A stretch of 64,000 nt of DNA from positions 1 to 64,000 of the forward strand of contig JAUVNS010000018.1 in the NCBI GenBank assembly GCA_030599585.1, read 5' to 3'. Under the pieces are notes generated by a model. That model saw only the letters and a program-made list of their open reading frames with translations, did not search any database and was not told the origin of the DNA. Positions within the stretch are counted from its first letter, which is position 1. Each line of letters starts with the position of its first letter. Positions 9,095-54,337 of this stretch are shown piece by piece. The DNA is from Promethearchaeota archaeon (GTDB taxonomy: Archaea > Asgardarchaeota > Lokiarchaeia > Sigyniarchaeales > SOKP01). A program made the position numbers and the translations under genes.

Positions 9095-9310
9095 ATGTCG
9101 ATTTCCCTTCAAGCCAAGAATCACTGGAAAGGCAACCACAGATTTACTTTTGAATCCCTTAGGCCTACCGCGAAAAGACAGATCGAATCTTTATTTAGAA
9201 GAATGGAAGCTTCAGGGAGGCGTTCGTTTTATCTAGAAGAAATTAAGAAAGTCCTATTGGACGAGCAAGATCGAATTTTAAGAAGACAAAGAGGTGAAGA
9301 GATTGATTAA
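9095..9310 (+). CDS. Small basic hypothetical protein coupled to the giant gene
   Basis: 71 aa; its 3' end contains GAGGTGA and overlaps the giant ORF start. Confidence 0.65.
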   Translation: MSISLQAKNHWKGNHRFTFESLRPTAKRQIESLFRRMEASGRRSFYLEEIKKVLLDEQDRILRRQRGEEID

Positions 9311-12300
9311 CGAACTAATCTCAATGAACAACAAGCGATTGTTTGAAGAAGCCTTAAACGATAAATACGGAGAAAAAATCTCAAGTCAGTACAGCGATTC
9401 GATTTTCGTTAAATATAGAAAAAATAAAAACCAAAATACTTACAAGAATACCTATAGCAACCCTCAAAAATGCCTAAAACTCATCGAAAATCTTTTTTCT
9501 GAGTTTAAGGTAGATTTAAAACTCATTAAGTTGACTTCAGAAGAGATCGAGCGGATTTTAACGATATTTCTTGCGAATGTCAACAACATTAAGTTAACTA
9601 AGAATCAGCTTACGTTTATTAACGAGTTACAAGAAGCCACTACCCGAAAAAATAACAAAAAAAATCTGGAAAGTAAAATTAGAGAGTTAAAATCTTTTAG
9701 AGTTTTTCTTAAAAACTTTAAAATTACTCTTGTTTCCTCATCGAAGGAAGACAACGAGTTTTTACAGATTAATCTTATTCGAAACGCTATTTTAACCAAA
9801 GAACCTTTGGATATCGCTCAAAGAGACTTTCTCAACGCGTTAAAAAAAAGAACTCAAGATTGTAAAAATAAAGAATATCAAGATAACGAGGTTCGGAATT
9901 TAAAGCCTCAAGACAGTAAAATAGGCGCTAGTCAGCCTAATTATGGTATATCCACATCTAACCAAAAATCCGATCTATATCACCAAAAACTACTAAGTGG
10001 TAAGAAAAATATGATAAAAAAGAAAAAGAAATCGAAAGAACAATACCAGGTAGAACTTGAAAATCGCTATCCTAGTAAAAAACACGCAAAAGATATTATT
10101 GCAGAAGGACGCGCAGAATTTTTACGCCAAGTAAAAAGCTGTACTGAGCAGAATTGCGCCCAGTGCAGTTCTCAACGCGATTATTTCGTTCCAATTGAAT
10201 ACTCAACTAAGTCTTTTACGTATCAATCGATCGAAGATGCCGTAGCAGAAGTTATTTGCCCTAACCCCGACTTAATTTCATTAGGGACCGTAATTAAACC
10301 AGAAGAACTTACTGAAGTAACTAAGGACATTCCGAATACTAATTTTATCTCAGAAGAAGTTTTAATTCCTGAAAATACCAGCGAAGTTAACCTCAAAAAA
10401 GAAGTAGACTCTCCTTCCATACCTAAAAAACAGATTATTCACAACGCTATTAAGAAAAAGACTCGTTTTTTCAACCGTTTAACCACTCCATCGGACAAGA
10501 AAGTAAAAAAACGCAGCGACAAACAAGCTAATAGAGCAACTCAAATAAAATTCCGACAGAAACAGTACGATAAGTTAAGTTCCAAGCAAAAATTGTTAAA
10601 CGCGACTAAAACGGAACGGAAAAGTTTCAATAATACCTTAAGAAGTGCCGTTTTAGAGTTTTCAAGAATTCCTTACGAATCCCAACCTGCTAAGACCGAT
10701 TCTCAAGTTAAGGGCGAGATTTCTAAATTAAACAAAGAATTTTCTTTGGATCCGTTAAAAGTTCAACCCCCCTATCACGATCTTAAATCGAAAAGCGAAC
10801 ACGAGGCCAGAATTATAGATAAATACCAAGAAAATATAAAAAACGGGCAACGGGAAGAACCTCGCCTTAACACGCGCGTAGACAAAGATAATTCAGTCCT
10901 CGTTAGACAAATATTCGAATCTTACTTTGCTGGAAGTAGAAGTCTTATATCCCACGAACAACAAGTAGTTAGGAGGTTTATTCAAAACGAAGTCGGTTAC
11001 GATAGCGGTGATAACGTTTTAGATTTGATTTTTGGACAGAGAACTCTTAAAAAAAACGTAAGAAAAAGTTTACGTGAATTCAAATCAATTAATCATTTAA
11101 AACACAACAAAAATCCTAAAAGAGAAAGGAAATCTATTATTTCTTTATCGCAAAAATATCGAAAACAGAAAGAAAAACCTGAAAAAAAGAAGAAGAGGGT
11201 TAAGAAGAATGTTAAGACCATTTTATTACCCAACCTCGTTAAGCTTTTGGGGATTTTTGGAATTGCTATTTTGTCTTTAATGGTAGTATTTTCTAACCAG
11301 ACTTTTGCTTTCCCCGTTGAGGTCATTTCAGGATTCCTCTACTTACAAGTAGTTGTTTTCGTTATTTTGATGTTTCATTCTATCGAAAATTACATCCTTC
11401 CCTTGAGAAAACTGGTCTTTTTATTTTTATCCCCAGTTTTACTTATCTTGTCCGTTTCGCTCTTTTTAGTTTTAGATTTACTCGTTATCGCAACTTTATG
11501 CACGCCAGCGTTTGCAATCGGCACCTATTTCTTGGTAAGGAAACGACTAAAAGCTAACCTGAACCAAATTTCTCTCCAATCGAGAGGAAAACTCAGATAC
11601 GGGACAATAAGCGTGTTATATCACAAAGTAAAGTTCCCAATGTTGATAATATTAGGTCTAGCGCTAGGAGCTGCTTTTTTCTGGGCGTATTTTTTCGAAC
11701 CATACGCTCTCCCAATTGCTCCCACCTTGTTAATAGTAACAATTTTGGCGTTTACGTTTAAAAGTAAATCTGTTACCCGTAGGCTAATTAGAGAATTAAA
11801 GCGAAGGAAACTAAGGGCTAAAGGAATAAAGACGCCAAACAAATTCCATATGGTAGTTTTTGATAAAAAAATGAGATCGGCTACCATCATATTAGCTTTT
11901 CTCGTCATTTTTCCAGTAACGTTCGGGATTCAATCTATGTGGTCTGTGGACAATCCTTTTTACGAGTTTGCGTCTGTGTCTAAAGAACAGAGAATATCGA
12001 CAAGTTCGATCGATTTTGATAGCTTGGATTATCATCCAAGTTTAGATTCGTTAGACGAGCTTACAATTAACGACAAATTCGTGATAAAAACAAGAGTCTC
12101 TCCAAAGTTTGGACAAGCTTCTCGAATTCGAGTCGATTTAATACCCATAGACGTCCCGGCTATTGACGGTTTTTACGCCAAAAAATCGTATACCGTGCTA
12201 TCTCCTTATCTAAACGGACCTTTAGACGATTCTGTATTGATAGCAGAAATTAACCTTAACGAGTTAGACTTACAACCAGGCTCTTACGAAGCCAAAGTGA

Positions 12301-15300
12301 GTTATTCAGTTTTGTCTGGATTTTCGTTCAAAAATTCTGAACCGGAAGTATATCAAATTGAGATAAGTAAAGACGATCTGACGGTAATATCAAACGAGTT
12401 TTTTGAAGAAGAATTAGATTCCAAGTATTACGGTGCTGTATACACTTTTGAACATCCAGACGATGGCTCGTGGACTGTGGTATACGATGGAAAAATAGTT
12501 AATAGCGTTCACGAACCTTACCCGGTTGACAATCTGGAACTATTTATCGAAACAAACGATAGGTTTGAAAAAATTGCTACGGTCAAAACTCGATCAGACG
12601 GTAGTTTTTATTACGCTCACAAGGTATACGGGTCAATCGAGCAAAATATGCTCGTTAAAATATCGTATTTAGGCGATGGATTTTATAACCAAATGGATTA
12701 CGTCGAATATGCCGGCTTAGAATTCGACTCAAGTAGGGGTAGGTATTTTCTGGACAATGACATGGACTACTATCCCGATTGGCCTTTTTCCATATACGAT
12801 TTATTGCAAATTCACACCAGTAGTTATACCCCTCCTAGTTCTTTAGATTTTTGGGCTAAGTTCGACGAAAACCTAGGATACAATACCTACGACGAAATAC
12901 ACAACCTACAAGGAACTTTAGAAGGAAACACAAATTGGACCGTTGGCAAAAACGATTACGGACTTACTTTTGACGGTAATGGAACTGTTGGTAACGAAGA
13001 GATCGAAATTATAGGCTCAAATATTTACGCTGCGTACGCTAATGTTTCGTACGAATACACCTCTCAAGGCGGTGGTCAAGACTTTAAAGTACTTAGAGGG
13101 ACAACGGTTATAAGCACTAGCTCAGCAACCGCAACTATCACCGAAGGAACCGATTACGTTTTAGAATCGGGACAAGATTCAACAACAAGTTTTATTAGAA
13201 TAACTAATACCAGATTAACAGGGATGGGAAGAACGAGCGGAGGAGCGAGCCAAAACAACGACGATTTTGGAGTTCGGATTCAAAATCCTAGCAACATTGG
13301 AACTTCTATTACTTTCGAGCGAACAGGGACTACTAACAACGATAGAGTATCTTGGGAAATATTGCAGTATATAGGAGCGGCTAACGGCAACAACGAAATG
13401 AAAGTAAGAGGCGTTGGCACCGCAACAATATCTGGAACAACGAATTATTGCGACGGAGCTTCGATATCAACTATATCAGATCCGAACAGAGTAGTTGTAT
13501 ATATTACGGGTCAAAAAGCGGCGGATACGGGAAGAGGTAATTGGTGGGAATCTTTATTTACTGCTGAACTCACCGGCTCTGGTCCATATACCCCGAGATT
13601 TACTAGAGGTAAATCGGATTCAAGCACAGACGGTATTTCTTACGCAGTAGTTGAGTTTACGGGCTCTAATTGGCGCGATGTCCAAAGGTTAGATATATCA
13701 ACTGAATGCTCGACTGCTTGGACTACATCGAATTATAACACCGCATACTCTGACGTGACGCTAACGAGCGAAGGCGGAGTTAATTTGCTTAACTTTTCGA
13801 GAGCGTTTATGCTCCAACAATTTCGAACAGATAACGATGCTACGGGACTCGATGACGCAGGAGACAACGTTGAAATTATCAGCAACACCCAGTTAAGGAT
13901 AAGAAATTCTGCGACTAGTGGCACGAGAAATAAAGTTTGTTGGATAATAGAAAATACTCAGTCCACAGGAACAGTTATGAAAGTGGATCATTATTCATTT
14001 TACAAGACGGCTGGAGGTTCAGAAGAAAATATATGGACTGAAACTGTTACTGCTGTTAGCACCACAGACATTGCGAGCGTGTACGCTCAATCGTCGATGG
14101 ACGGTACGGGGACAGCATTACCGCGAGGTAGTATTGATTACAGGCTCACTGCCACCGACACTGTCACTTTTACAGAAAGCGACAACGGGCAAGAAAAACT
14201 TTATTCGCTTTCGGTAGTTCAATTTCCTTCAGAAGGCGGTGAAACCCAAGTTCAAGATAGTGGAATAATTAGACCTGACGGGGATAACGCAACAACCGAG
14301 TGGGAAATCACGACTGGAACCGATCATTACGATTTAATAAACGACATAGTAACTGAACCGAGCACGCCTTCAACATCGGGCGATTTCATTTACACGATCA
14401 GCACCGGAAGCGGAAACGTAACTGACGAGTTTAACATGGATTATCTCGACGTGCAGAGCGGAACCGTGGATCAAATTGAAATTAAAGTTTACGGAAACGG
14501 ATCTTCGATAGAATCTACGATTAACGTGTTTTGTGGAACTTGGCTCGGAGTAAAACAATTAAACATGGGATCAACACCTGGATGGAACACCTACGCTTAT
14601 TCTGGACTTTCTGCGTCTCAGACCGATGTAGATAACATAATAATAAAGTTCGAATCCGAAAGACCGATTCCTGCTCAAGGTGATCCAATATATTCTAATT
14701 TTGACTTTGTGCAATTTGGAGACGTTCTAGATACTACTTTAGGTAATTCCAACGATATTTTTGTCGTTACGGGGTGGTTATATCCCACAAGTTTTGCTTC
14801 AAATCAAAGCGGGAATGGAATAGAAAACATATTTTTTGCAAAAAATGGAAACATTGAAATTGGAGTTAACGAAAGCGGTTTTCTCCGGCTTTATTTAAAC
14901 TCGACTAACATAGAAGCGGTGGGAACTTACGGATTTACTAACGCAATTCCTTTAGATCAATGGACTTACGTAGCAATTCGCTACAATCAGAGCGATGTTG
15001 ACGTATTAATAGGAGAAATGTGGTGCAGAGACGCTCTGGGAGGAACAAGCGAACCATGGAACGGAGGAGGCAACTTACAAGCGGGAGGTAATTTAACCAT
15101 CGGAGCCGAAACTACTAGTTACTCATGTTTTGCGGGGAAGATAGACGAAATATCTTTGTTCAACGCAAGCCTTACGGACGCTCAAATCGAAGCTCACACG
15201 GGATCGCTAACCGTTTCAATATCTCTGGGAGTTTCAGAGGAAAACGGAGAAGGGGGGTGGACACTAATTACTTCCGTAGGAGAAATAGTTGACGGCTACC

Positions 15301-18300
15301 TTAACTTTGAGGTAAACGCTACAGGCAACGAGGTAGATTCGATAGAATTTTATCTATCGAGAACGCAGCCCGATTTCCAGACCCAATCCGAAAACAATTG
15401 GGACTTTCTCGCCAGTTATAGCCACGATTCGCCTTACTATTCTTATTTATTGGACTCAAGAGACCTTCCCGATAACAATAGTTGGTATTTTATTAGTAAA
15501 GCGACCGATATCGATAATAATACGGTCTACGAGTATTACAGCACCTATTTTGCTATTGAACATTTTCACGATTTGGTTAATTATACCTATCTAGATAAAA
15601 ACGGAAGGATAAACCACAATTCTTACCTCGGAGTCGTTCCCATAGACGGGCTAGAATGGCATTTATCGTCATTAAATGTATACATTAACTATTCTAACGA
15701 TATAGACTTCTTAAAAAATGCTACTTACAACGACTTGTATTCTAATTACTGGTTGATCGAATTATCGGAACTGTCAGACTGGGTTTCAAATAAAGGACTA
15801 TCTCCGGACAATTACGATGTAAATTTCGTTATTCAAGCTAACTTGTCTTACAGTTTCGGAGAATCGTTTTACTTGTATAATTATTCCATCGAACCAATTA
15901 TTTTAGATATTAAAGGTCCCGATCTTGAACTAATCACGGGACAGGAATATTCTTTGGTATTAGGATCAACTTACGATCTGGTGGAAAATAATCTAATTAC
16001 AATGGCTATTAACTCGACTGATACCGATTTTGATAAAGTAACCCTTGAATATAAATACGATACTCCTACCACTACAGAATGGATAAAATACGGTGATTTC
16101 GATCCCGTTGAATCTTTGGCAGAAATTATATTCGATCTCATAAACCTACGAGACGATAACATCACAATCAGGTTTATTGGGTTTGACGATTTGTTTAACA
16201 GTATTACATTATATGAAGGGAATTATTGGATAGTAAAAGATTATAACAACCACGAAAATTTCGTCGTTGAAGGCTTAGAAAGCGGCTCTCTTTACGGTTT
16301 AGATCAAGACGGTATGGTTGATTTAAGCGTGAAAGTTATACCTGTGGATAACGACATCACCAAAGTTAAGTTGAGCACGGGATACGAATCGTTTGAACTA
16401 AGCAACGTAGAATCTGAAGGTAGTAACATCTATTTCACTGACGATGGAGTAATTGACGTAGACATAAAGCTTAATTCCTCCCTATATCCGATTTTTGGAA
16501 GCGATTTCACCTTTATCGAAGTCTCGATCGTTTTATTTCAGGGAGAAGATCGCATAACCGATAAGACTATTACTATTACGGTTATTAACCAAATATTTAA
16601 CGACATAGTAGAAATTTCAGATTTAGCGATAAATATCACGAGCTCTATTGATAATCTAAAGATGAGCTTCGTCAACAGTAATAACGCGTATAATAATTCT
16701 CATTCTATTCCGTTCGTAGTAAATAACGAACCTCCTGTAGTTAAGGTGTACGATTCAAACGGCAACCTTTATGCTACAATTAACCTTTTACCGCATAACG
16801 ACACTTACGACTCAGAACTGTACGATAGCGGTCAAATATATATAACAGACAATCGCTTCTCGGTATCTATGCCAATTCCTCCTTCGGGAGAGGTGAGTTC
16901 GATCGATAAAGTAAATGTAAACGGAACCTATTACGAATTTTCGTATTTCGTTAGCGGGAGCAAGTTACTAATAATACTCCTCACCAACAAAGATTTGAGC
17001 GGTACTTACGGCGCTTCAGCTCCCATTTCAGTTGAGTATGGCGTTTCTACCGCCCTCAAGGAAAGCGATCAGTTTATAACTAGTTACGATCTAACCCAAT
17101 TACCTCAAGATAATTACACTTTTATGGGAGAATTTTTCGATATTTCAGGAACAATTTCTCAATTTATAATTAATTCTTCGATTGCCATAGATTTCCACGG
17201 ACCACAAATATATAGCCAATTCCAAAGTAATTGTTCAATTGACCCCGAATCGAGCTCGATAGCGTTTGTAGTACGCGATCTATCGGGAGTGTCCGATTAT
17301 TACCTTAACGCCTCCATCGAGGGATATTGGTCTATTGTAGGAGAACTCTATACTTTTATGTTTAACGATAGTAGCCTATCGGAAGGCACTACGCACGTAA
17401 AATTTACTTGCAACGATACCCAAGGGTTAGAAACGATTTTCACCTTTTTAATTACCGTAGATAAGTCCAACCCTACTTTTTCCAACGTAAACACCTTATC
17501 TTCTTATTGGACCGATTTATACGAGATAAACGCCACTATAACCGACTTTTCTGGATTCTCGCTGGGTGTTGAAGCATTACACGTAAGTTCGGACGTTATT
17601 GCGTATAATTTGGATTACACAATAGTAAGAAAGAGTAATGTATGGTCGATTTTAGTGTCTTCAGAAAGTTTAGAGAACGGATATTACAATTTAAGCCTTA
17701 TTGCGACCGATAACGCGGGAAATATTGGAGTATACGTGGTAGGCGACGTCTACTTAGATACTCAATTTACCGAAATAGAGTCCATCGAAGAACAAATTTT
17801 TGCCGAAAGCGAAAACATGTATAACAACACTTTAACCGATTACATTTACTTTAGCGAAGAAAAATACCTCGAAATAACTGTTTTTGACGAGTTATTCGAC
17901 GGGTTTGATTGGAGCTCCATCGATCCTACCATCGCCGATCAGTTAGGGGTTAAAAATATTTCTTTCTACTACACAAACCCTCTTAGTTGGTACGATATTT
18001 CTATTTTAGGGAGTTTAGATTACGAAACCCTTCACTACAAAATAACTGGATACGGGAACCCAATAAATACCACAATAACAAACGTAAAAAATATTCAAAG
18101 CTTAAAAATCGGAGATTACGTGATCGATAAATTTACGGTACTATTGGACGGAACTTCAATCACCCTAAAAATCGACGAACAATACAGGTATCTGTTATCT
18201 CCATACTTAACTGACAATATTACCGCTCAATTTTACGAATTAGCAAACAATAAAGTTACCTTATCTTTCGATAATACCTCAAAAAAGTGGGAACTTCTCT

Positions 18301-21300
18301 CTTCGGGACAAAATTATTTTAACGTATCAGAATACCTCGATTTATCCCAAGAACAACAATTTCTAGCCTGGTTTGAAGCAGAAGATGGGTTAGGAAACCT
18401 ATTACAGACTCACAAATATAAGTGTGTGTACGATAATTCCTTAGAAAATTCTCCACCTGCTCAATCGCTGTTCAATTGGAACTTAGGAACTAACTCGACT
18501 GGTGCAGGAATAATTATTTTTGGATCTGACGAATATTCAGATAGCACAATTGTAGTAAATGTCTCTTCTATCTTACCCTTGTTATCGGGACTTACTGACG
18601 TCCAACGAATTGTAATTTACGGTTCAGAGACCGGTAGTTCGTGGGGATTTGTAGGAAGAGCTTACTTTAGCGGAGAAGAAAACTTATGGAACTTTTATTG
18701 GGACGGAGACGCAATAGATCCCATGCTTCCTGAGAGCTATAACCTTAAAATCTACGCGTTCGATCGAGCCGGAAATTATATTACCCAGACGGAAGAGGTT
18801 AACCTTTACGACTACACTCAAGTTGTTTTGCTTACCGATGTAGTGTTTGGCCACGTGTTTGAATACAACGCTTCGCTAATATCTAACCCCCAGACAATAG
18901 AGGGGACGATCGATAACTACTTCCAAGGTTCTTCCGAAGCCTTATGGGACGTCATCGCAGAATGGTACGATCCCAACAAAAGAGAGTGGGTTCCACTGGC
19001 TTTTAACGCCTCGACCATCGTATCCGCAGGAGATACGGCGGATTACACCATTACTTGGGACATCAGTAAAGATAAATCTTTCGTGCAGTCGATCTACAAA
19101 AATAATTACGAATATTTACCGCTAAGAATTAACGAAGCTACGAGTTCAGATTTATGGGGCTCTTGGGGAACTTTTGGAGCTTACAACGACTGGCAACCGA
19201 TAGTCATCAGCGAATCGAGCGGGTATTTAGACGTTTCGGTGTTTGAATTTAACGAAGTTACTGGATGGGAGTTAGATACGTCGGTAAGTAGCGAAGACGC
19301 AATACTATCAGCAACGGATCAAGTGTTTACCCTGTTTGACGTTGACAGAGATAACAACTACGAAATTATAAGAATTACTCCTAATCAAATTGATGTAATC
19401 TACCTCGATTCTGGGTCAAATTGGGTGGTAAAAGAAAACATTACCAATTTAGCAGGATACAATTATTTATCTTTCGATCTCGAATACGATTCTAGCTCTT
19501 TAGATACACATTTTGCAGTAGTTCAAAAGAACGCTCAAGAAGAGTTCTCCCTTTGGAAATACGTATTTGATTCCGAATTTAACCTTACTTACTTGTGCGA
19601 TACTGAAAGCCCGCTTAACTTTGAACCAACTGCGATTAAAATAGTAAATCACTTCTCGGCGAGCGATAGAAAAGCGATACTAGTTGGAGGATTAATGGAC
19701 AATTCTTATTACTCCCAATTACTCGAGTACGATTCAGAATTGGACTTTGAAAGCGTGCTAGCAGAATCCATCTTAGGAAAAATTTCTATTATCGAATACG
19801 AAAGCATCAACGGAAAAGACACCACAATCTTAGGCGTAGAACGGCTCACGATCGGTAAGATGGACGCCGTGGTTGCGCTTAAAAGAACTTCTGGAACCGA
19901 AGATTGGGCGGAGTTTGAACTTTCCGGCTTTGACGATACTAAGTTTGAAATATTGGACTTACTTACTATCCAAGAAAATAACGCAAAAAAGTTATTAATT
20001 GCCTCAAAAACGGGGTTATATCAAACCAAAATAGAATATTTAGAAAATACCGAATCGATCACAAGTCCGTTAATTTATACTCACGAAGTTTTCGCAAAAC
20101 AAGATTTATCTCCTGATTATTACCCTATCATTTCGTTAAAAAACTATCCAATCCGATCAATATCAAAAGTGTCGTATAAAAACACCGGAGATTCGCAATG
20201 GTACGAACTTGACTCTAATAAAATAAGATACTCTCGAACCGAAATCCAAATAGATTTAGCAGCTATCTGGAGCGGTGTATCGCTCGTAAAAATTGCCTAC
20301 TCTTTCGAATCGTATAGGCGAGAAGAAAGAACCTCGGTCGATCCCTCTTTTAAGTCGTATAAAGGTTCTTCTAACGTTCAGACCACTTCTGCTTCCGGCA
20401 TGTTCTTTAGCGATTCAGCCCTTCCGTTCCTATGGTTGAACCCCACGACAAAATATTCCGATCCCTACCCAAATTGGAACTTGTTACCTAATGGAATGAC
20501 CTATCAGAACACCCCTGTTATTTCTGGATTGGGAAATACCGTGGTATATCCTTCCATTCGAAGTGGATGGACTAAATATAGTTGGGGTTCTGAATACACG
20601 ACGATACCCGGACTTGAGAATTCTCTTATATTTTACGGCGACTCCTACGATTCTGGAGTTCTATCCGAAGAATTAAACGGGCAAGATAGTTATTTAGGAG
20701 ACTCTCAGTTCGGAGGAAATTTTGAAAATAACTACATTGACGGCGTGTGGGTTTCAAACCCTTACGTTTCAGACAACTACAACTTTTCTCAAATGTATTA
20801 CTCCGACATTCACGATTCGACTCAAACTGGGCTTTATAACTACTACGATAGCTCTCAGAAAGTGCTTGTGAAAAACGAATTAACCGATCTAGAGCTGTTT
20901 AATACCTCGATCTCTCTTATTTTTGATTCTGGAAGTCTACCCGTTTCGATCACTCCACAATATCTAAGTAGCGTCACCTATCCAACGGGAGACCCTGGAA
21001 CCGAACCTCTCTCAAATTCTCAGACCGACGATACAAACTACTACGAGATGAAGTCTGAAGAATTATACTTCAACGGCCCTCATGGTCTTGTAGCAAATCT
21101 CAACACAAATCCTGCTTATGGTGGCGACGACTTCTATTTAAGCTGTCACATTGAAACCTTAGAGGGAGAAGAAGGCACATTAAAAATAAACGGGCAAAAT
21201 TATTTGATAAGCGACGATATCGATTTTGATAACGCCTTTATAGAAAACGTTAATTCAATTAGTTTCACTTCTGGAGACGAGTCTTCAACTGCTTTTACGG

Positions 21301-36300: not shown

Positions 36301-39300
36301 TCGATATCTATGAAGACGATAGACAAGTTGACATATACCTACTAGATTTACGATTAGAAGAAAACCCTTCGAGCAGCAGCAATAAAACTCTTTGGTCTGT
36401 GTATAACGACGAATTTAATTCCGATGGTACTGGATTCGGATTATCCAAAGACAACTCGATTCAGACCGAGACAGGAGTTGTGTCTTTAGGTGGTACTGAG
36501 AACGAGGTAGATTACGGTCTAGAAGTTGAGTTCACTTACAACCCCGAAGAGAGTATTTACACAATCGACTCTGAAAGCGAGTTATTTGACCTATTTAAGT
36601 TAGACGACATAACACCTTTAGAAGTGAGTTGGTTAAACGGTTCTGAAGAGATTACGCTTACAAAAGATACCGATTGGCAAATTGGATCGAGTTTATCTGA
36701 AATTGAATTTTTAGACAATTCGCTCCCTGATAATTATTCTGATTTCATAGTAGTATATAAGTTTGATTTTGATTTTGGAGCAAACAATTTTGCAAATATT
36801 ACATTAGGTCCAAGAGGTGGAAATAACGCAAACGAGAGTTGGATATTGTTTTCTCTCCCAGATGGTTTCTTACCTCCTAGCGAAGATAGTTTATCGTTCA
36901 TGTACACTCGATTTAACCAAACTTTCGTTGGAACAGGGTCGGCAACGCAATACACGCTCGAATACGGAGTTCAAGGAGCTACTGAATGGGACGACGATCT
37001 CTTTATTATCTATAACGAGGGTGAATTAGGATTACTCAGCAGAGACGCCCCAAGTGGAAGGCCTAGGGTCGAAATTAACAAACCTTTAGACGAGGTGTTT
37101 AACGTTAAATATGGTATTCGATCGGAATACCTGTTAGGATACGGGTTCCAGAAAGTAGGTGAAGTCTATAGCGACTCTGTTAGGTTAATGTATAACAACG
37201 AGTCATCCTCTCCAATAATAGATAGCGCTGGTCCTAAAAACACTCTTTCTTTAAGCGATCCTTCTTTGTACATCTCGTTAGACGACTCTTCTAAAGAGAC
37301 AATATTAGAGCTTTACAACGTACCTTTGTTGTATTCTCCCGAAGTTAATTTCACCTTTGCGCTAGATCCAATTGTTATGGACTTAGTTGATACGTTCACT
37401 ACTGAGATTGTAAACTCGCTTGAGATTACCTTCTATTACGTGGCAAGTGGAGGTTACGGTTCTTATTACACCGATACAATTTTGTTACCTTTAAACTATA
37501 CGGAGCTTTCGTTAGATTTACAATCTGGAAGCTACTTCCTAAATTACAACAAAGACTTACAAGGGATATACGAAGCGTTTGGCACCGGTAATTTAGATGT
37601 CTACGTGGCTATATCGCAAGTAGGGAACGGTTCTAATTACATACCTTACGTAATCTTGGAAGAATTCGACTATTTATGCGACGAACATCTTCTGGAGATG
37701 TACGATCGTATGCCTTTAGACGGAGACGGCGATTTAGACGTGAAAGCGGTGATTAACACTCCACATTACGTTCAATTATTTTCAAAACCTTTTGTTGACG
37801 ATATTTATGGCGGATCTCCGTTTGACTTACTTGATAACTCTCAAATAACCGTTGGTTTGGATGATATGGTCTACTCAAGTTTAGTATCTCTTCAAACAGA
37901 CGGAGTCGGCGGGTATGCGTTTGAATACTTAGGTTCTCAAGAAACTCTTCCAATTAACGCTGAGAATTACTACCAGATTCCTAACTTAGGACTATTTACG
38001 GACGCCTACAACTTAGACGAAGTAGTTTATCAAGATGGTTACGTCGATCTATTCTACGGAAATGGCATTGAAGTAAGCGGAGCATACGATTTTGACTTGG
38101 CTATTAACATGGAATACGATTCATTAACAGTTGACGATTACGAAGCTACTATTAGTGGCGGAGTAGTAACCTCATGGGAAGATTATTACAATATAACCGA
38201 TCAATTTTTAACAACGGACGAGATTGCGGTATCAGATACGGTATTATACCATCAATTATTCGACCTAACCTCTGATATCATAGAACTGGACGATCTTAAC
38301 GAGATTTTGGGCAATATCACTGGAGCCTACTTTGGAGTAAAACTTCCAGACGATGTTTCAATTTCATACTTACGCACTATCGGTTCTCCATACACTTACG
38401 ACCTATCGGTTCAAGGCTTCCCAATTGGTAGTTATATCGATGGCACATATTGCAAAGTAAAAACTTCAGGCACGACTCAAGATTTTGACCTTAGAGAAGA
38501 TAGCGAAATTATGAACAGAACTACTTATTATTCGCTCGAATTTGCGTCAAATGGATCAAAATACATAGTTTTTACTAAATCGATCAACGATGTTTCAAAT
38601 TTCGCAGTAAACGATAAAATTATGGTCGATTATTGGGCGTATTATACTTTTGTAGAAGGGTTTGATTACGAGATCGTGGAAGACCCTCTCGACCCATACA
38701 CTTCAGTAATTGATTGGGCTTACCAGATTAGTGCAATAGACTCCTATACCATGCATCCAGATTTTATTATTAACTCCAGTTTTAGCGTTGACTTTTCCGC
38801 ACTCGAATGGGAGGAGATCGACAATAATTACATTCACGATGGATCTGACGAATTTACTTTCCAACCTCATATAGACACTAATACCACCGTGCTTTATAGT
38901 GGAGATGTGACCGAAGATTTCTCTGTATTGAACATTGTCCCTGACAACCAATTCAACGAAACCGACTTATTTACAAATATTTATGTGGATATATGGGACG
39001 GAGAAAACGAAGATACGATTTTTACTTACGAATACTTGTATCAGCCATTAGGACACGGTTATATTATCCAAGATGTCAACGTTAGTTTCTATTTCACTAT
39101 AAATTACACCGCAATTGAGGAATTCTTCCAACAATATTATCCTGATCACGTTCTTTTGGACGACTCTTACACGTATATTCAATTAGGGTATGAATCGACT
39201 CAGTTAAGGTATACAATGAGCAACACTCCGTTTAATTACGATTACGTCGGGTCCGAGCATACTACATATCACATAGTGCTCACGATAGGAGAAGACGCTC

Positions 39301-42300
39301 CAATCTATAGTTACCAATCGGCGTTCAACGATTACATTCTAAAGATAGAAAATAATTTCGTATACTTTAACGATAGCAGATTTGTCGACGATGGATATAT
39401 TGCAAATAATACCAACATTAAGTTGGAATATAAATACAAGTTGCAACCAGGCTTGTTGGAACGAAAACACTTTCTATCTGTAATCTATCCGTGGAGCAAC
39501 GCGTTTAATTCCATAGTAGACGACGCCATATCGGGCGATTCTGACATAACTTATAGAGAGAAATATAGAAAATTGTCTGGCTCTTCTATTATTTCTCCGT
39601 TCGAATATAGCTTGTCGATTAACGATACTTATAGATTGTATTTAAGCTATCGCTTGAATCAAAGAGAATACTTCGAAGAAAAGTTTGAAATTGACTACCG
39701 ATCTGGTGAATTAGACTTTTATTATTTAAGCAACGCTTTTGATAACTACGTATCCGAATATTCGAAAGAGGAAGTAGTAGTATATTATTTTGACGAAAAC
39801 AATCAAATGCAATTCTTAGATAGAGCTTCTTTCATTGTCGATAATGTTACTCACAAAATTACGTTAAAAGCGGATGGAAACCCTATAGTTTCTATCAATC
39901 CCATTGTAGAATTTTACGTTGGATTTAGCCCCGCAGTTAGCGACGAGAGGTTTAACGCGTACGAATATACCTACAATCCTTCTCTTGGTATGAACGATAC
40001 TCTAGAATTAACTTATTGGAACGTTACGCACGGCGAAAGGTTTGACGTGATTCCTAACTTAAACGCTTACAATTATATAAACGAGCCCAGAACCACATTT
40101 ACCAATTTTGTCTCTCACGCAACTCAAGTAGCGGCTTTCTTAGAAGAAGAAGAGACTTTAGTGTTCGATTTAGCGGGCGAAATTGGGTGGTACAACGACG
40201 CGCTCCTAGACGGCATACAGAACGGAGAGTATCTATCGATCTATTTCCACGCGTCGTTTGAGAATTACTATTGCTTGGAAGGGATATCCGTAGAACTTAA
40301 CGATTCGACAGGCGTAATACCCGGTTTCACGCAATTCATCACTATCGAAGAACTCGTAATGTGGGATTTTGACATTAAAATCGATCTCCCCTTTGAACCA
40401 AATAACGACTTGCAAACGATAGCGATCACCCCAATATTTGCAGATTCTGACGAATATTCTGAAGATAATATTCTAGGTATTCCACATTTTGAACTATTAG
40501 AATGGGACGAAGACCTAGTGGAAGGGGATATAGACCGCTACATTCCTATTCAGTTGGAGACCGAATTGATTACCGATTCTCCTTCTTTAGAAATTGCCTA
40601 CTTGTTCAACGAAAATCTGCAATATTTAGCTTTACCTGAAGGAGTAGAGTTTAACTGGAGCGTAGACGACGACTTTTTAGGCGAAGGTCACTACACGCTT
40701 AACATTCCAGAAATTTTTGTTAACCCAGACGATACTTCTCAAAACGCCACTTTCGAAGATGGAGATGTTATTTTGTTTAGATACAACATTCCCGCTCAAA
40801 AATTGGTAAAGATAGGAATAAAAGAGATTTACTTTAACAAAAAACCATATAATTACGATCAGTTATCCGTTCTTTCCGAATTTGTATTAGTAAACGCAAA
40901 CGAAACGGATTCTGACTCTTATAATTACGACGAATTTACCGCTCCTTACAACTACAACGCGAGTTTACGGTTAACTCCTTTTGACGACGAGTTTACTTCT
41001 TCCTACAAGAGCGTGGCAATTGATTTGAACATTTCAAGTTTAGAAGCATTTGCTATCGACGGATTCGTTGACTTTTCACACATATTATTTTCAGCTCCAA
41101 ATCCTAATTACGAATTAACTGTCAGCCAAGTAGTTATCGTTCAAGAATTAGAAGGACTTTCCGATTTTGTGGAATTTTTCGATAGCCGAGTTTGGCAATT
41201 TACTGAGTTCGAGAAAGTTACTTCTAGCCCCGTACCTGAAAAGGATAATTATAGTCTCGAACTACCAAACGATCCCATTTATTATCGAGACGCGGATGAA
41301 GGCAAGTGGTTAGAATTCATAAAGATTTACGACGAGAATTACAACTATTATTCCGCCGGAATTTCAGGAGACGAATATCAACTTCTTTGGTCCCCGGCAA
41401 CCAAGAATTTCACTTGGAACCCTTCATTCGATAGATTCCAAGAATATTGGGGCATGCAGATAGAACTTCCGCAACTGATCCAATCAAATACAACTTTATA
41501 CTTTGAATACTGCGCGAATGTTTCTTGGAGCAACGAAATCGATTTAGATTACGAGAACATTCATTTCGACTCTTTCGAATTGATATACAATTACGATTAT
41601 TTACTCACGCCTCGGTTCGAAGACTGGTACGGAGAACTAATAGATAATAGTAACGACGGTTTCGATTACGAGATCGAACAATTCTATTCAGAAACTTTTG
41701 TTGTTTACACCGAAACTAACGAGTATTCGCACGCTTTTGAGACCGAGTACGATTTCGAAGATGATTTCTTAAACCTTACTTTGTATAGCATAGTAGGATT
41801 ATACGCCAACTTTACGGAAAAGATAATAGACGACGATAACGTGAATTACGATGTAGTCTTTGACATACCAGCTAAAAACATTACAATTACTGATTTAATT
41901 TCAGGAGATGGATTATTAAACGAATTTGACGCCATTACGGTTGTTTTAAACTTTACTCACGGGCTCGACTCTACTAAGACCAAATTAAAATTTTCTGATT
42001 CCTTTAACCAGACCTATTTAGACGATATGGATGCTACTTTTTACGATTTTGTTTCAGGATCGTTTGAATACGCTACCAAATCAGGCGATTATTTATTTGT
42101 AGAGAGAGCGGAAACTATCGCTTCTGATAGCACCTCGTTTGTTTCAATTGATTACACCAGAAATTCTGATCTTAGCATAAACCTAAACTTAGATAAATAC
42201 AATACATCGGCGTTATTTGACAATTTCGAATTGTATTTAGACCCATATAACGTAATATACGAAGCAGACGCAGACATGGATGGTAGAAGAGACTTTAAAC

Positions 42301-45300
42301 ACGAGATCGATATAGATAAAAACGGAAGGGTTGACGTTATTAAATTTGGAGTGGAGAGCGAGACCGATTCTAATGAGATTATCTGGCACACCGCAATCAA
42401 CGACTTTTTAGGAGACGAAACTGAATACGATCTAAAGTCAAGACCAAGAGAGACCACAAAGTGGTTCGACCTGGACGACGCAATGTTCACCACCTCTACT
42501 TCGTTGTTTACCATCTTTTTTGCCGAGTTAGATTATTGGGGTAAAAAATACGTGGAACAGACTTACGCAACAGATCAATCTGTTGAGTCATCGTTTTATT
42601 CTATAATGGTTGACGACGATTACGATGGAACCGCCAACACCCAATATACTTACGAAAAATCGAATTTTGTTCAATATACATACGTAATCAACAACGAAAC
42701 GACTATTTTGGCAGCGAAACCTCAGAACATGTTCACATACATATACGCTAGCATGGCAGAATGGATTGGGACTTTAGTTACCGGAGGGAGAGTCGATCCG
42801 ATCTTTAACGAACAACTCACTCCGGAGATGATAGAAAGCGGCTCTTACCCGGGCGACTTCCATTGGCTCGCCCCAGACATAAGGGAAACCTTAACTCAGA
42901 CATATAAGAAATATTCGATCGTGTCAACCAGACTCTATATAGAAAATTCCGTAAGCGAAAAAATAACCGTTAATAATTGGGAGAACGGAACCCTATTAGA
43001 AACTAGAATATACCAAGATTTGTTCAAAGACGATTCTATAGATTTGGGTATCGACCTTAGCCAGACCGTAACAAACTTAGAAACTGGGCAACAACAAGAC
43101 ATTCCTCTCGATTTCATTCCCGCAATCCAGACCGAACAAAATTCTTACGCCATATGGGACGATGATTCTAACGTGCCGGGTAAGTTTGAGTCTTTAACCT
43201 CAGTAGATTTAGAATCTTCATCTAGCGATAGTAGTAATTTATTCGAGCGAGATATACGCATAGTTATTCCTAGTAGAATTAACCCTTACAACGACTATAA
43301 AAAAAGCGTCTCGTTAAAAACATCTGGCACTTCCGACATGAGACTAAACATAACAGGAATACATATAACGCCCGCTGACGGTAAAGTTTATTATAGTTCT
43401 GATAAGGAATCTTTCAAACTTAATGGTGGAGATGCAGCCAAAACCGAAGGAAGTTATTTCTACTACGATAGCGATCAGAACGGGTTCATGGAAACAGTTT
43501 ACGTCCTATCTCCTGTAAAGGGCGCTGGGGACGACGCTTATTACGAGGTGGTGGCTATTGGCTTTAATTACGACGGCAAGCACGATTTCGTGCCGTATTC
43601 TAAGACTGAAATTGGTTCGCCTATCGAAAATTTAAACGAATTTAAAGATGTTCTTTCCCACGAAGTCTATCAGACGGGAGGCAATATCTTTGTGTTCTCT
43701 AAATTAGCAAGTGATACCGATCGCTTGTTCCCACCAGAAGATAGAGACGGATACGAAGTTAAAGATAACATATTTGAGATAAGAAAATTAATTACGCAGA
43801 GCGCCCAAAACGCCAGATTTTCCGAGCTTTTCTACGAAACCCGCCATAGAGAATTTAATAGCCTTTGGGAAGTATTTGGTGAAAAATTTGAGCGCGATTT
43901 AAGCGAACAAGTAGCGATTTCTATAACTGCTGGAATAGCAGCAGCTATTGCGAGAGTTTTTACTTCAGATTTGGGAGCTATGGCCGTATATTTTGGCATA
44001 TACACATCTCTTAGTTTGATTTCTAACGACGTGAAAGCACGCGAGGCGGAGGCGAAAATCAGATCTCAAACCTTTTACTCAGAAGACGCCGATAGCAACC
44101 AACCTAGATTTCTCAATAATAAATATCCTAAAGACGATATTTGGGGCGATAGCATGCCTGCTGCTCTGAGTGGACACCCTGGAACGTATTACGCTGAAGT
44201 TAGAGGAGGTCAAACGGGAAACGAATACTTAGGATACGTTGTTGCTGCACCCCCAAATGACGATCGGTGTTGGGGAGGTTCTAATAACTTCTTAGATTTT
44301 ATCGGATCTAATTTCGACCTAGCTTGGACAGATACCTTACCGCAAGACGTTAATCCCGACATTATGACTGGGTTAGACTTCGATTATCACAACTTAGACT
44401 TTTTAATGGTTGCCAGCGAGCTTTACTCTTACAACGACCAAGAACATTACACCTACTTGGAAGGTCAAGAATTAGCCGATACAATGTTGGTATTAGAACC
44501 AGTTTACGAGGACTACGATTTTGAACAACTCCTGTCCTACGAGGACTACGAGCTTGAAGATTTTGTAAAACTTTATCTAACTGGTCCTGAAATTGTCTTA
44601 AGAATCATTCAAAACTACGATTCGTACAAGTTACGGCAAAACACTCTCGGCTACTTAGAACACGAAATTACCGAAGCAACTAACGGCTCTCTCAATTCAA
44701 TAAGACCAATAATTTCGGACGAAGCACCTCAATATGTTTTTGCTCAAGAAGACGGAACTTCGCCTTTATCACCGCTTTTTAGCCCTCTTATAATAAGTTC
44801 CGCGAGATACGATCAACTGAGCGATTCTCGAAAGTTTGGTTATATTTTTGTAGATATTGCCTCTTCTGAGACGGCCAACACGAAAGGTATCGATTCAACC
44901 GACCTTCTAGACGAAGAAAGAGCGTTTTATTCCGCAAAAATACCGTTAGCCGACATGTATGGGGCGTTTAATTACCCAATCGAAAGCGTAATATTACACA
45001 AAGTGGTAGATAAAGAAATAACTTCCAGAACTCTTAACCCCTCTGATTACGAAGTTCCCGAAAAAGTGCAAAACCTTTACTTCACCCACCCAATAAAAGA
45101 CCTTATGGGTGATGAAGACTACCTCGCACACTCAATGACAAAAACCTATAGCGAAGAAACCGAAGTGCATTACATATGCGAGATCAAATTTGCTAAAATT
45201 ATACCTGACGACGGCAACCTTTCAGAAGAAAATCAGAGAAATTTATTGGCTCAAACCACCATGTATCCTATCTTAGATTATTTCGATCAGTATACCTTTG

Positions 45301-48300
45301 CCGCTACGACAGCTAAAATGATCGGAGAGATTGCTTACACCGAAATTATAACGGTTCAATCTACGTCGCGTTCAGCAATTATCGTAGCGATGGCAGGAGC
45401 TGCTGCCGCAACTCAAAAAAAGTTATCTGAAGAAGCGGTAGGGATGATCGCTCAAGTAGGGTCTTCGGTATGGTCCACTGCAGTATCCACTGCTCCATCG
45501 TCGATATTTTATAGTACTATAATCCAAATTGCTTCAGGAGCCACGAGAATCGTTGCCCAGACCGTAGCAGAGATGTTCGAAGAAATCATAGTTGACGGTT
45601 TCATCGAGACTTACTTCCAAAACTCTGCTCGAATGTTAGGCTGGACCGAAGGGGTCGGGAATTTGATTTCCACGCTTATGACCACGATTCGAGAAACCAA
45701 CATGTTTGGTATTTTCAATCTAGGAGGGCAAGACACCAGCTCGCAAGGAGCCAACTCGCTCGACGTTAATTTAAACGCCCAGACCGAGCAAGAACTACAA
45801 CACTCCTCGTTAACCGCAGAGCTATCCCAACTTATCGCGGAACGAGAGAACGACCAGTCGTTTACCTTAGAAGAATTTCTAAAAGAGAACAAAGAAGGCG
45901 TAAGGTCAATTATGTCCGAATTCGGCTTAGTTCCGAGCAGGCACGAGACCATACTGAAGATGGCAGGCATCATAAGTTCAGGCATTTTTGCCGGGCTTTC
46001 AATGTTAGTTCCGGGACTAAGTTTTGCGGGCTTTAGTTTGTACGGGTTTAGTCCCATGATTAAACATCTAGGAGGAAAAATCGGCGGACAAGGAACTGGG
46101 TCTACAACTACGATGCGCGCAGCCCTACAGAACGCTAGAAAGAGCGAGATATCGCAAGATATTGATGCGAAAATAATTAAACAGATGGAAGCAAAAAGCG
46201 GGCCCATCGACGCAATATTTAGGAGTAAGTCAGATCAAGCGGCAACTGTTAAATCAATAGGGAGTATTAGCCACACGGGAAGAGCGGTCGAATACTTGGT
46301 AGACACCAAAGCCAAAGACTTTGACCCAAACACCTACTATGCATTACAATCTCAAGCCCAAACTTTCTACGAACCATCTTTGATAGTTAAAAACTTAGAA
46401 GCTCAAATAGAAACGACTAAATACATAGCAAAAGCAATCGAGTCTTTAGGACTAATTAAACAGACTATTTCCGATATAGAAGAAAAGGTAGAGACTTCAT
46501 CAGAAATTTCAAGCATAAATTTAGATACATCAGCTATAAAGAGTCCAATACCCATCGAAGACCCAATCACATGGCTTCTAGATGCAGATTACGAAGGGGA
46601 CACTTACAAAAGAATTCTTTTACCCGGTCTACTTAAGATGACAGTTCCTGAGTTTAAACTTCTTGTAATGCAAGAATACGACGTTCAATATGCGATAGAT
46701 ATATTCTACGGTCCGATTAGCTACGTGGATCCAACGACTTACGATATCGAAATCGGCAGAAAAGTCGGCTCTTTAGATATCTACAGTGATACTACAATGG
46801 GAGAGATATTAGAAGAATTAAACATTGATCCAGAGAACCCTCTAGAACATTTCTTCGTAGTGCCTAATACTGAGAGCACCGAAAATAGGGAAAATCTAGA
46901 ACAAATGGTAGATTCTCCAGCTTATACATTATTTAAAGATGTTTTAAGCAGGAATTTTGAAGGTCGTGATAACGTCATTAAAGCGTTCGGAACTCCAGAA
47001 AAAGTAGCGTTTCTTTCCAAATTTTACCAAGAAGTTATTGGTTACCTAAAAACGGCTATGATGGACAAATTCGGTATATCTGAACAAAATTTATTCAGCG
47101 AGTCAAGCGGTTTGATAAGGGGTTATGTAACACAAGATTTGCATGGTGACGAAGTGAAAGCAATTTGGGAAGAATCAGGAGCAACGACTGACGATAAAGC
47201 TCGATTCAACAAAAAAATAAAAGAATATATTGAAGACAGGTTTCTAAGTTACATAAAGGAAGATGGTTTCAAAAAGGGAGATTTTGACGTTTTAATAGAA
47301 CATAGAATGGATGAGACGATATTATTATTCCTACTAAACGAAATGGATACCGAGGACACAACTCCTGAAGGTTTATATTCCAAGTTTAAAGAATTCTATT
47401 ACGAATTCGACTCAATAGTAAGGGATTTGCACTCTGTAACTTACGATCTCACTAATCCAGCTGGCTTGAACCTATTTATGCAAAATTTCTTACAAACCTT
47501 TTACTCTACTGCGCTAAAAGGTAAACCCTCTCATTATACTAATGCAAAAACCTTTATTGGTGAAATTCCCGAAACTGGAGCTGTTAGACATGCTATTATC
47601 AAGCTTGCAAGAAGGTATGCTACGCACGGATTTCAAGATTTTGACATTGGTCACGATATGCAATACACAGCTCTAGGTCCTAAGGAAGATATCAACGATA
47701 TCATAAGCGATTTAAAAGCGAAAAAAGAGATTGATAACTTTGGAATAGATATAACCACCAGTTTTACCCCATTATTAGTAAACCACCAAGACGTTCTTTA
47801 TACTCTGTCCCCTAATTTTATCTCTAGTTTAGAAGTCAAAAATTCACGAAGAATTGATAGTATACATGCCATATACGATATAGGAATAGATGTTTTTAGA
47901 ACGATCGACATCGATAAATATTTCTCGTTCGGTCTTGATAAAGTTCCTGTTAGATACGAGGACTTTTATTTACCTGTTTCTTCTGCGATGATACCTTCAA
48001 TATTTTATAATATTTTTGGTACCCGCGATCCAAATAACATGAGGCATCTCGGTTTTAATGCTGATGGAACTATCACTAAAACGGGTGATCGAAAAGGAGA
48101 TAGCGAATCATTATTCTTTCTACAAGTAACTAAAGCTCTTAATAATTTTATTAGCACACAATTCTCGGGACTAGATAAAAACGCTTTAAAATCAAATCTT
48201 AAAGAAGTTTTCGACTTTCTTTCTTTAGAAGAACCTTTAACATCGCCTAGTTTACCAATTTTCGGAAACTTTTTGGATTTCGCCCTTGATGAGCTTGAAG

Positions 48301-54335: not shown

Positions 54336-54337
54336 CT

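Follow-up and report, generated by a model that had tools for sequence, protein, structure and literature searches.

A giant surface-protein family of Lokiarchaeia with exchangeable tips: a candidate polymorphic-toxin-like system in Asgard archaea

The window analyzed here, a stretch of 64,000 nucleotides from contig JAUVNS010000018.1 of a Promethearchaeota archaeon (C23:1-64000 in our numbering; the source genome comprises 4.85 Mb in 52 contigs), is dominated by a single giant open reading frame (ORF), which our own translation reads without an internal stop in a window that contains no N letters (table 1). The product of this ORF, herein referred to as the giant, has a computed mass of 1,578 kDa and is, judged by its sequence, a member of a Promethearchaeia (Lokiarchaeia) family of predicted surface proteins of ~9,000-20,000 residues, in which a conserved trunk ends in exchangeable C-terminal tips. 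Downstream of it lie a convergent gene encoding leucine-rich repeats (LRRs) and an orphan ORF that joins a homologous distal module to a different tip, and upstream lie a conserved signal-anchor gene and a four-gene cassette.

Table 1. Features of the giant-gene locus (nucleotide positions in the window; residue numbers are those of the giant)
Feature	Position	Strand	Basis
Giant ORF, 13,902 aa (1.58 MDa)	9294..51002	+	single frame from GTG start
Basic N-terminal region, aa 1-644, predicted cytoplasmic	9294..11225	+	composition
Seven-transmembrane (TM) anchor, aa 645-884, predicted N-in/C-out	11226..11945	+	hydropathy, loop charges
Acidic, sequon-enriched, largely non-repetitive stalk, aa 885-11479	11946..43730	+	composition, sequon count
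Distal module, aa 11480-12290: modeled alpha/beta domain flanked by two long hydrophobic helical hairpins	43731..46163	+	shared with orphan ORF and paralogues
Variable tip, aa 12291-13902, 1,612 aa, Lys-richer, sequon-free, mosaic	46164..50999	+	unrelated to paralogue tips
Tip domains D and E, aa 13290-13902, co-occurring with LRR gene	49161..50999	+	alignment A4
Convergent partner gene, 357 aa, conserved N-domain and LRRs	51081..52154	-	LRR_8 3.8e-17
Partner-like gene of orphan ORF, 266 aa, N-domain and non-LRR tail	57063..57863	-	43% identity over 148 aa to N-domain of LRR gene
Orphan short-form ORF, 1,354 aa, module and different 634-aa tip	57896..61960	-	module 68% identical to that of C47 giant
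Upstream cassette, four co-directional genes: 493 aa (cut by contig end), 247, 287 and 109 aa	1..3630	+	recurs at C24 and C32
Conserved upstream gene, 601 aa, signal-anchor, many sequons, Pro/Thr linker, PGF-type C-terminal anchor	7211..9016	+	read from sequence

An ATG lies 10 codons inside the GTG start of the giant. Its basic N-terminal region carries 15-19% Lys plus Arg and 9-12% Asp plus Glu, and holds a C-x4-C-x2-C cluster at residue 283 (nucleotides 10140-10166). In the seven-TM block, Lys and Arg residues number 19, 1, 9 and 16 in the successive loops of the inner side and 0, 0 and 0 in those of the outer side; because of this positive-inside pattern we orient the protein N-in/C-out, which would place everything beyond the block outside the cell. 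The stalk is acidic in every 500-residue window from residue 885 to ~11480, with a net charge of -7 to -16% per 500 residues. BLASTP at 1e-5 recovers no internal repeats within it, and an iterated profile finds one ~120-residue module in three copies (at residues 3896, 6793 and 6928) and only those three. Most giant adhesins are tandem arrays of one domain, unlike this stalk. Hydrophobic segments return toward the C-terminus, at residues 11540-11558 and 12220-12249, and the final ~1,600 residues are richer in Lys and Arg. A preliminary description of this DNA had proposed one intact 41.7-kb ORF of ~1.5 MDa with a basic N-terminus of ~650 residues and a Cys cluster near 10140, ~7 TM helices oriented N-in/C-out, an acidic, sequon-rich region of ~10,600 residues, and hydrophobic hairpins followed by a Lys-rich tip, and all of this anatomy is recovered here. 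Known families contribute little to it: across the whole giant, scanned in three tiles, Pfam returns only Big_13 (0.073) and Coatamer_beta_C (0.009), both below Pfam's cut-offs, and searches of PDB sequences with the three tiles, the tip and the 1,354-residue ORF return no match at E<=0.5-1.

A frame of this length invites the suspicion of misassembly, and the preliminary description had named an assembly chimera as the finding that would overturn it. Two further giant frames are present in the same genome, at C47:27053-70708 (14,552 aa) and C24:357280-398853 (13,858 aa). The giant and its C24 paralogue are colinear, with 79% identity over residues 1-1264, 65-70% over the next ~5,000 residues and 45% over another ~5,000, the aligned stretches being separated by cassette-like insertions and deletions; the C47 paralogue lacks the N-terminal region (aa 1-644) and is colinear with the distal half of the giant at ~25% identity. 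The DNA of the paralogous loci is only 66-82% identical, which makes cross-assembly among them unlikely; between the giant and C24, DNA identity drops steadily from 82% at the 5' end to below detection after ~36 kb. In other genomes, the frames of relatives stay open over 9,130 to 20,619 residues around the distal module (the longest, of 20,619 aa, is G207:C13, with the module around 140628-142667), and several other genomes hold giant frames of 11-15k residues. Additionally, pieces of metagenome contigs from two sediment runs (the probable source and another sample from that study) match positions 33000-49150 without a difference or a joint. A chimera is unlikely because the paralogues are colinear, the relatives retain open frames, DNA identity among the loci is low and the metagenome pieces show no joint. 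A second, unrelated family of large ORFs also occurs in this genome (G000 C1:93879-106025, C50:2-11065 and C41:36868-44088; 2,407-4,049 aa); its members are 33-60% identical to one another, contain many internal repeats and each break off at a contig end; they probably represent pieces of additional giant genes.

A conserved landmark of the C-terminal part is the distal module, which was recognized from the alignment of residues 11539-12135 of the giant with residues 55-579 of the 1,354-residue ORF (BLASTP E 9e-9) and is conserved in both the C24 and the C47 paralogue. A profile built from four sequences across aa 11480-12290 and searched against 1.84 billion representatives clustered at 50% identity matches 266 clusters, 126 of them at E<1e-30; the named module-bearing records are annotated "hypothetical protein" and come from Lokiarchaeota/Promethearchaeota metagenome-assembled genomes and from the LCGC14 marine sediment metagenome. 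When 400 genomes of the phylum were searched in all six frames, 55 of the 134 genomes of the window's own Promethearchaeia family proved to contain the module, as did 4 of the 265 scored genomes from other families. An AlphaFold2 (AF2) model of the module, built with 115 sequences, reaches a predicted local distance difference test (pLDDT) of 77.7 and a predicted template-modeling score (pTM) of 0.77. In this model, a long hydrophobic helical hairpin leads into an alpha/beta domain of ~380 residues, a further three long helices come next, and a poorly defined hydrophobic, Gly/Ala/Ser-rich stretch closes the module. Foldseek with this model against the PDB gives a best E of 0.047, in a search where single domains may be missed since the model exceeds 400 residues; with the same caution about model size, the VIA matches are confined to TM-type helical hairpins, which superpose on model residues 51-105 and 594-668 with Z of 5.5-7.0, values in the range that the tool calls common. 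We therefore treat the module as one without a detectable solved relative, with modeled hairpins that look membrane-competent.

Beyond the module, similarity between family members ends abruptly. The alignment of the giant with its C24 paralogue stops near residue 12310, and the tips that follow (1,612 and 758 aa) are unrelated; likewise, the modules of the C47 giant and the 1,354-residue ORF are 68% identical and their tips differ. When 59 tips were cut after the module and joined by single linkage at 1e-5, they fell into 16 unlinked groups. A trunk conserved up to residue ~12310 and followed by unrelated C-terminal domains is the arrangement by which polymorphic toxins are recognized (PMC3482391). 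The giant's own tip is itself a mosaic, whose parts (tip residues ~1-95, 59-700, 705-955, 1037-1453 and 1454-1610) recur in different combinations in other ORFs, and 13 of the family's 134 other genomes have a tip of its type; the match in genome G233 carries two TAA stops. Pfam identifies LAGLIDADG_3 in four of the 59 tips (best 1.1e-10), a polymorphic-toxin deaminase (Toxin-deaminase, PF14424) in one (4e-6) and Peptidase_S24 in one. For the giant's tip, there is no match in Pfam or the PDB and no usable match in the ESM Atlas. Within its domains D and E, alignment A4 holds invariant positions (N12, K73, W75, E130, G146, T149, M157 and F281), near-invariant His and Arg, and the motif FGHFTLR. 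An AF2 model of these last 613 residues (pLDDT 75, pTM 0.58) retrieved nothing better than E 0.43 with Foldseek and Z 4.8 with VIA, again with a model above 400 residues in which single domains may be missed.

The tip is accompanied by a gene that appears to travel with it. The LRR gene begins 78 nt past the giant's stop, and its product consists of a conserved N-domain of 148 residues followed by LRRs, with no signal peptide or TM segment seen in the sequence. In five other genomes (G233, G177, G168, G268 and G228), homologues of the giant's tip have a convergent LRR gene no more than 30 nt away. The G233 protein is 63% identical to the window's LRR partner over its full length, beside a tip that is 35-38% identical, and the G177 protein is 39% identical over its full length; those of G168, G268 and G228 are partial ORFs, 33-41% identical over the parts present. 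The LRR-linked tip homologues include ORFs that contain only the 1037-1453 part of the tip. The paralogous giants have related neighbors, with an N-domain-plus-LRR gene on the same strand 79 nt downstream of the C24 giant and another 2.8 kb from the end of the C47 giant. Imm-LRR is a recognized immunity class of polymorphic toxin systems (PMC3482391).

On the opposite strand, 7 kb beyond the giant, the orphan ORF represents a form that is common in relatives, where many intact module-plus-tip ORFs of 1.3-2k residues occur. The homology of its locus to C47 at the DNA level stops 29 nt upstream of the orphan's start, its 634-residue tip has no Pfam match at E 0.05, and 32 nt downstream of it starts a partner-like gene of its own, which shares the N-domain of the LRR gene. 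The interval between the LRR gene and this orphan cassette is occupied by two tandem paralogous genes (52956-55792, minus strand; 459 and 484 aa, 27% identical), each with an N-terminal JAB/MPN domain (Pfam 4.5e-11 and 1.5e-13) of a eukaryote-like, deubiquitinase type and a long helical tail.

The distribution of N-glycosylation sequons (N-x-S/T; expected counts were taken from shuffles, 300 of them for the giant) separates the stalk from everything distal to it. The giant's stalk holds 160 sequons where 130.6 are expected, a count that none of the 300 shuffles reaches, and the three stalks in the genome hold 160, 165 and 175 (131, 137 and 156 expected). The giant's tip, in contrast to its stalk, has none against an expected 12.6; the four tips in the genome together have 0 against 25, the four modules 5 against 19.5, and the orphan ORF 0 against 8.2. 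The genome-wide ratio of observed to expected sequons is 0.94 in 1,183 ORFs without a hydrophobic segment and 1.34 in 519 ORFs with a TM-like segment. Across the family, the ratio is 1.02 in stalk pieces (403 observed, 396 expected; 38,097 residues), 0.24 in modules (113 and 464; 73,102 residues) and 0.017 in tips (5 and 299; 42,986 residues), and 50 of 55 tips lack sequons entirely. Sequon avoidance is hence specific to the end-piece, is independent of tip family and lies far under the cytosolic baseline. The simplest reading of this contrast would be that both module and tip are exported, moving past the site of N-glycosylation, under selection to remain bare. Such avoidance, stronger than in cytosolic proteins and shared by any tip family, fits export followed by a step that glycans would block, and a bare end-piece would suit a part that inserts into or crosses another membrane. 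More generally, a sequon-rich stalk beside a sequon-free end-piece offers a simple signature of which part of an archaeal surface protein must stay unglycosylated.

This contrast bears directly on where the tip resides. The giant could be a doubly anchored loop, in which the hairpins are TM segments in the producer's own membrane, the stalk is an extracellular loop and the tip is a cytoplasmic signaling or enzymatic domain regulated by the LRR protein, the whole serving as an outside-in sensor. The cytoplasm-like composition of the tip, an LRR partner devoid of signal peptide and TM segment, the superposition of the module's hairpins on TM hairpins and the existence of short forms without an export signal would all be accommodated by such an arrangement. 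A cytoplasmic domain, however, has no need to avoid sequons, and the tips fall far below even the cytosol-like ORFs of the genome; the topology of the module would also have to flip, its N-terminal end lying outside in giants and inside in the short forms, and at least 16 unrelated tip groups behind one module suit cargo better than an output domain. Sequon avoidance in the end-piece thus argues for the C-out orientation and disfavors a cytoplasmic tip, and we regard the loop as unlikely.

The same observation disfavors a mere binding head. The giant might serve purely as an adhesin or spacer filament, in which the stalk spaces cells, the tip is a receptor-binding head that diversifies in the manner of phage tail fibers and the LRR protein assists folding or export. 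The very long, acidic, sequon-rich and extracellular stalk is what a filament of this kind would have, its cassettes vary between paralogues, and huge archaeal proteins with LamG-type domains are known and unexplained (PMC11573180). An exposed binding head, however, should tolerate or even favor glycosylation as the stalk does, and the tips avoid it almost wholly; deaminase-toxin and LAGLIDADG domains are found among the tips, the LRR partner looks cytoplasmic, and the hydrophobic hairpin module would be left without a role. Adhesion as the sole function consequently strikes us as improbable, a shade more so than the loop. The preliminary description had suggested a very long surface filament for contacting other cells; the data are compatible with this, but the proposal is too narrow given the module, the swappable tips, the LRR partner and the orphan cassette.

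Exchangeable tips, a distal module, an LRR partner and an orphan cassette point to variable effector display or delivery rather than to adhesion alone. By analogy, the locus would have the genetic layout of a cell-to-cell toxin-and-antidote system, with toxicity putative, and the logic of polymorphic toxins (a conserved delivery part, tip exchange at a fixed junction, spare cassettes and a tip-linked partner) appears to fit it. On balance, we lean toward the view that the giant family is an archaeal polymorphic-toxin-like, contact-dependent system for effector display or delivery. In this view, the basic N-terminus would stay cytoplasmic while the seven TM helices anchor the protein; the stalk would be threaded outward and glycosylated, and the module and tip exported yet kept glycan-free. 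On contact, the buried hydrophobic hairpins of the module would insert into the membrane of the other cell and pass the tip, or part of it, across, and the cytoplasmic LRR protein would protect the producer and its kin by binding and neutralizing the tip that matches it. The short ORFs that join module and tip, 57896-61960 among them, may be spare cassettes for tip exchange through recombination. A bolder proposal, which we advance only tentatively, is that the giant is a self-contained, single-polypeptide contact weapon or messenger of Loki-type Asgard archaea, composed of a membrane-rooted, glycosylated stalk of ~1.5 MDa, a new membrane-insertion module, glycan-free mosaic effector arrays and LRR antidotes.

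Several observations weigh against effector delivery and its components. Membrane insertion and tip translocation by the module are steps that we infer. For the giant's tip, sequence and fold searches reveal no toxic activity, catalytic motif, known fold or known family, and across the family Pfam recognizes only 7 of the 59 tips; a second Pfam scan, of 20 tips, did not bring up the deaminase or LAGLIDADG members, and neither did simple motif searches. The nuclease families considered for the orphan tip (GIY-YIG) and the C24 tip (HNH) are not matched by Pfam at E 0.05. We found no releasing peptidase and no conserved motif at the junction. The family of the LRR partner's N-domain has ~12 copies in this genome and 2-17 in relatives, most of which adjoin neither a giant nor a sequon-free ORF, and in five other genomes an N-domain gene lies near only one or two giants. 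The N-domain family was considered as a general immunity family and rejected, since most of the ~12 copies are not beside sequon-free ORFs and linkage to giants is irregular; because the family is multi-copy and mostly located away from giants, the label of cognate partner should be reserved for the orthologous LRR subset. Complex predictions of tip domains D and E with the LRR protein scored 0.00, 0.47 and 0.00 against a mark of 0.32 and favor neither binding nor its absence. The partner gene of the giant is convergent, unlike the co-directional partner genes of most bacterial polymorphic toxin systems. Finally, the orphan's module is only ~20% identical to that of the adjacent giant, so the orphan could recombine with the C47 giant but hardly with its neighbor, and the short module-plus-tip forms have no evident export signal.

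The genes upstream of the giant raise the question of whether it belongs to a mobile element. The 601-residue gene (also at L011:1092-2918 and L012:2482-4281) is found upstream of all three giants (92% identical to the C47 copy and 43% to the C24 copy); at C47, a 377-residue beta-helix gene is interposed between it and the giant. Its product has no Pfam match, ends in PGF followed by a hydrophobic and a basic segment (an archaeosortase-type anchor) and may be a surface partner of the giant. The kinship of the locus is mosaic, the 601-residue gene being closest to C47 and the giant closest to C24, which suggests recombination among the giant loci. Farther upstream lies the four-gene cassette, of which C32 and C24, in the latter case upstream of the giant, hold copies at ~80% DNA identity. 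The 287-residue protein of the cassette is ParB-like (Pfam 5.6e-6; PHROGs 2.7e-24), and its 247-residue ORF is 98.6% identical to the C24 copy although the DNA there is only ~81% identical. A reading of the first ORF (1-1482), which the contig end truncates, as a primase was considered from DxD and SGxRGxH motifs seen by eye and rejected, having no support from hidden Markov models and, as its best PDB row, a DNA primase at E 0.88. Small genes on the opposite strand follow the cassette, one of them with a helix-turn-helix (HTH) motif. A plasmid-like origin of the cassette is possible.

The giant might accordingly be cargo of an integrated plasmid-like (aloposon-like) element and serve that element, for example in cell contact for transfer or exclusion. 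The ParB-like gene in a cassette shared by three loci, two of them upstream of giants, would suit this explanation, as would the small HTH genes nearby, the GC content of the giants (~38% in all three, against 32.6% for the genome) and a patchy occurrence within the genus (15 of 41 genomes). We nevertheless consider it very unlikely: ARAGORN finds no tRNA in the window, no integrase or transposase is present among the larger ORFs scanned on contig C23, the upstream cassette encodes no MinD/ParA-like ATPase and the five upstream proteins that were read lack a Walker A motif, the giant is a single gene rather than one of tandem genes for 3,000-6,000 residues, and the giant family is common in one archaeal family and rare elsewhere. 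The mobile-element setting suggested in the preliminary description is only weakly indicated by these data. Beyond the window, the contig continues with a 1,651-residue ORF without a Pfam match (C23:64674-69626, plus strand; L013:674-5626), near which lie an RPA-like OB-fold protein and a TPR protein whose N-terminus is weakly TIR-like (E 4e-4), and with a tandem array of 120-bp period at C23:76253-77122, whose units are ~77-80% identical in blastn self-matches.

The preliminary description had also mentioned aloposons, giant-gene integrated elements of Asgard archaea. Those of Ca. Heimdallarchaeum encode the proteins Otus and Ephialtes (3,000-6,000 residues) in tandem genes, with integration at a downstream tRNA gene and, upstream, four consecutive genes, one of which codes for a MinD/ParA-like ATPase (Wu et al. 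2022, PMC8813620). Both loci hold unexplained giant genes of Asgard archaea behind a short co-directional cassette with a partition-type gene. In contrast to aloposons, the locus described here has one gene for 13.9k residues, with the next large ORF (1,354 aa) 7 kb away on the opposite strand, no tRNA site and a ParB-like rather than a MinD/ParA-like gene. Compared with the published definition of aloposons rather than with their sequences, the giant is not an aloposon.

Other systems resemble parts of the giant. In MARTX and the large clostridial toxins, a hydrophobic helical region is proposed to insert into the target membrane, and the cargo is a mosaic effector array that differs among relatives. 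The giant is comparable in its apparently membrane-competent hydrophobic helical region and mosaic tip, but it has no detected similarity to these toxins in sequence or fold, lacks their autoprocessing cysteine-protease domain and would be anchored to its producer rather than released. Huge archaeal surface proteins, such as halomucin and LamG-bearing proteins (PMC11573180), are like the giant very long, acidic and probably glycosylated, and Asgard proteins of >10,000 residues have been noted with no function given (West-Roberts et al. 2023, bioRxiv 10.1101/2023.11.21.568195). The distal module, exchangeable tips, partner gene and sequon contrast are, however, unmentioned in those reports, and in the papers searched on giant Asgard proteins we found no description of the distal module, tip exchange or sequon contrast.

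The closest parallels are the bacterial polymorphic toxins (CdiA-CT/CdiI, Rhs and MafB; Zhang et al. 2012, PMC3482391), whose overall plan resembles that of the giant: a large surface protein whose trunk is conserved, a single junction at which unrelated C-terminal domains are exchanged, a neighboring partner gene that appears to accompany the tip, and standalone cassettes of trunk end plus tip; one tip of the giant family is, moreover, a polymorphic-toxin deaminase. The giant differs in residing in an Asgard archaeon and in having its own seven-TM anchor in place of secretion by a type V, type VI or type VII secretion system (T5SS, T6SS or T7SS), and export signals for these or similar routes were not found in it. 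Pfam at E<=0.1 matches no haemagglutinin, FHA or PT-VENN domain of the CdiA/CdiB type over the whole giant, and no RHS repeat of the Rhs/YD toxins; CdiA/CdiB uses the T5SS, and the host here is an archaeon without an outer membrane. Additionally, the stalk is ~10 times longer than usual and largely non-repetitive, the module that precedes the tip has no match to a known family or solved structure, the partner is convergent and the end-piece avoids sequons. The giant fits no known member of the polymorphic toxins: its scaffold, anchor and module are new, and its host is an Asgard archaeon.

Polymorphic toxin systems of the classical kind are reported to be rare in archaea (PMC3482391), and no function has been assigned to the many giant genes of Asgard archaea (PMC8813620; bioRxiv 10.1101/2023.11.21.568195). 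The giant family links these two observations and adds a distal module that is modeled with confidence and for which searches of solved structures gave no match. Since Loki-type archaea have other microbes as close physical partners, a far-reaching protein with exchangeable cargo bears on how they may recognize, fight or manipulate their neighbors. The toxin reading is testable, as both the tip and the LRR protein are amenable to laboratory expression. Were the bolder proposal of a contact weapon or messenger true, archaea of the lineage nearest to eukaryotes would have invented a parallel to bacterial contact-dependent inhibition.

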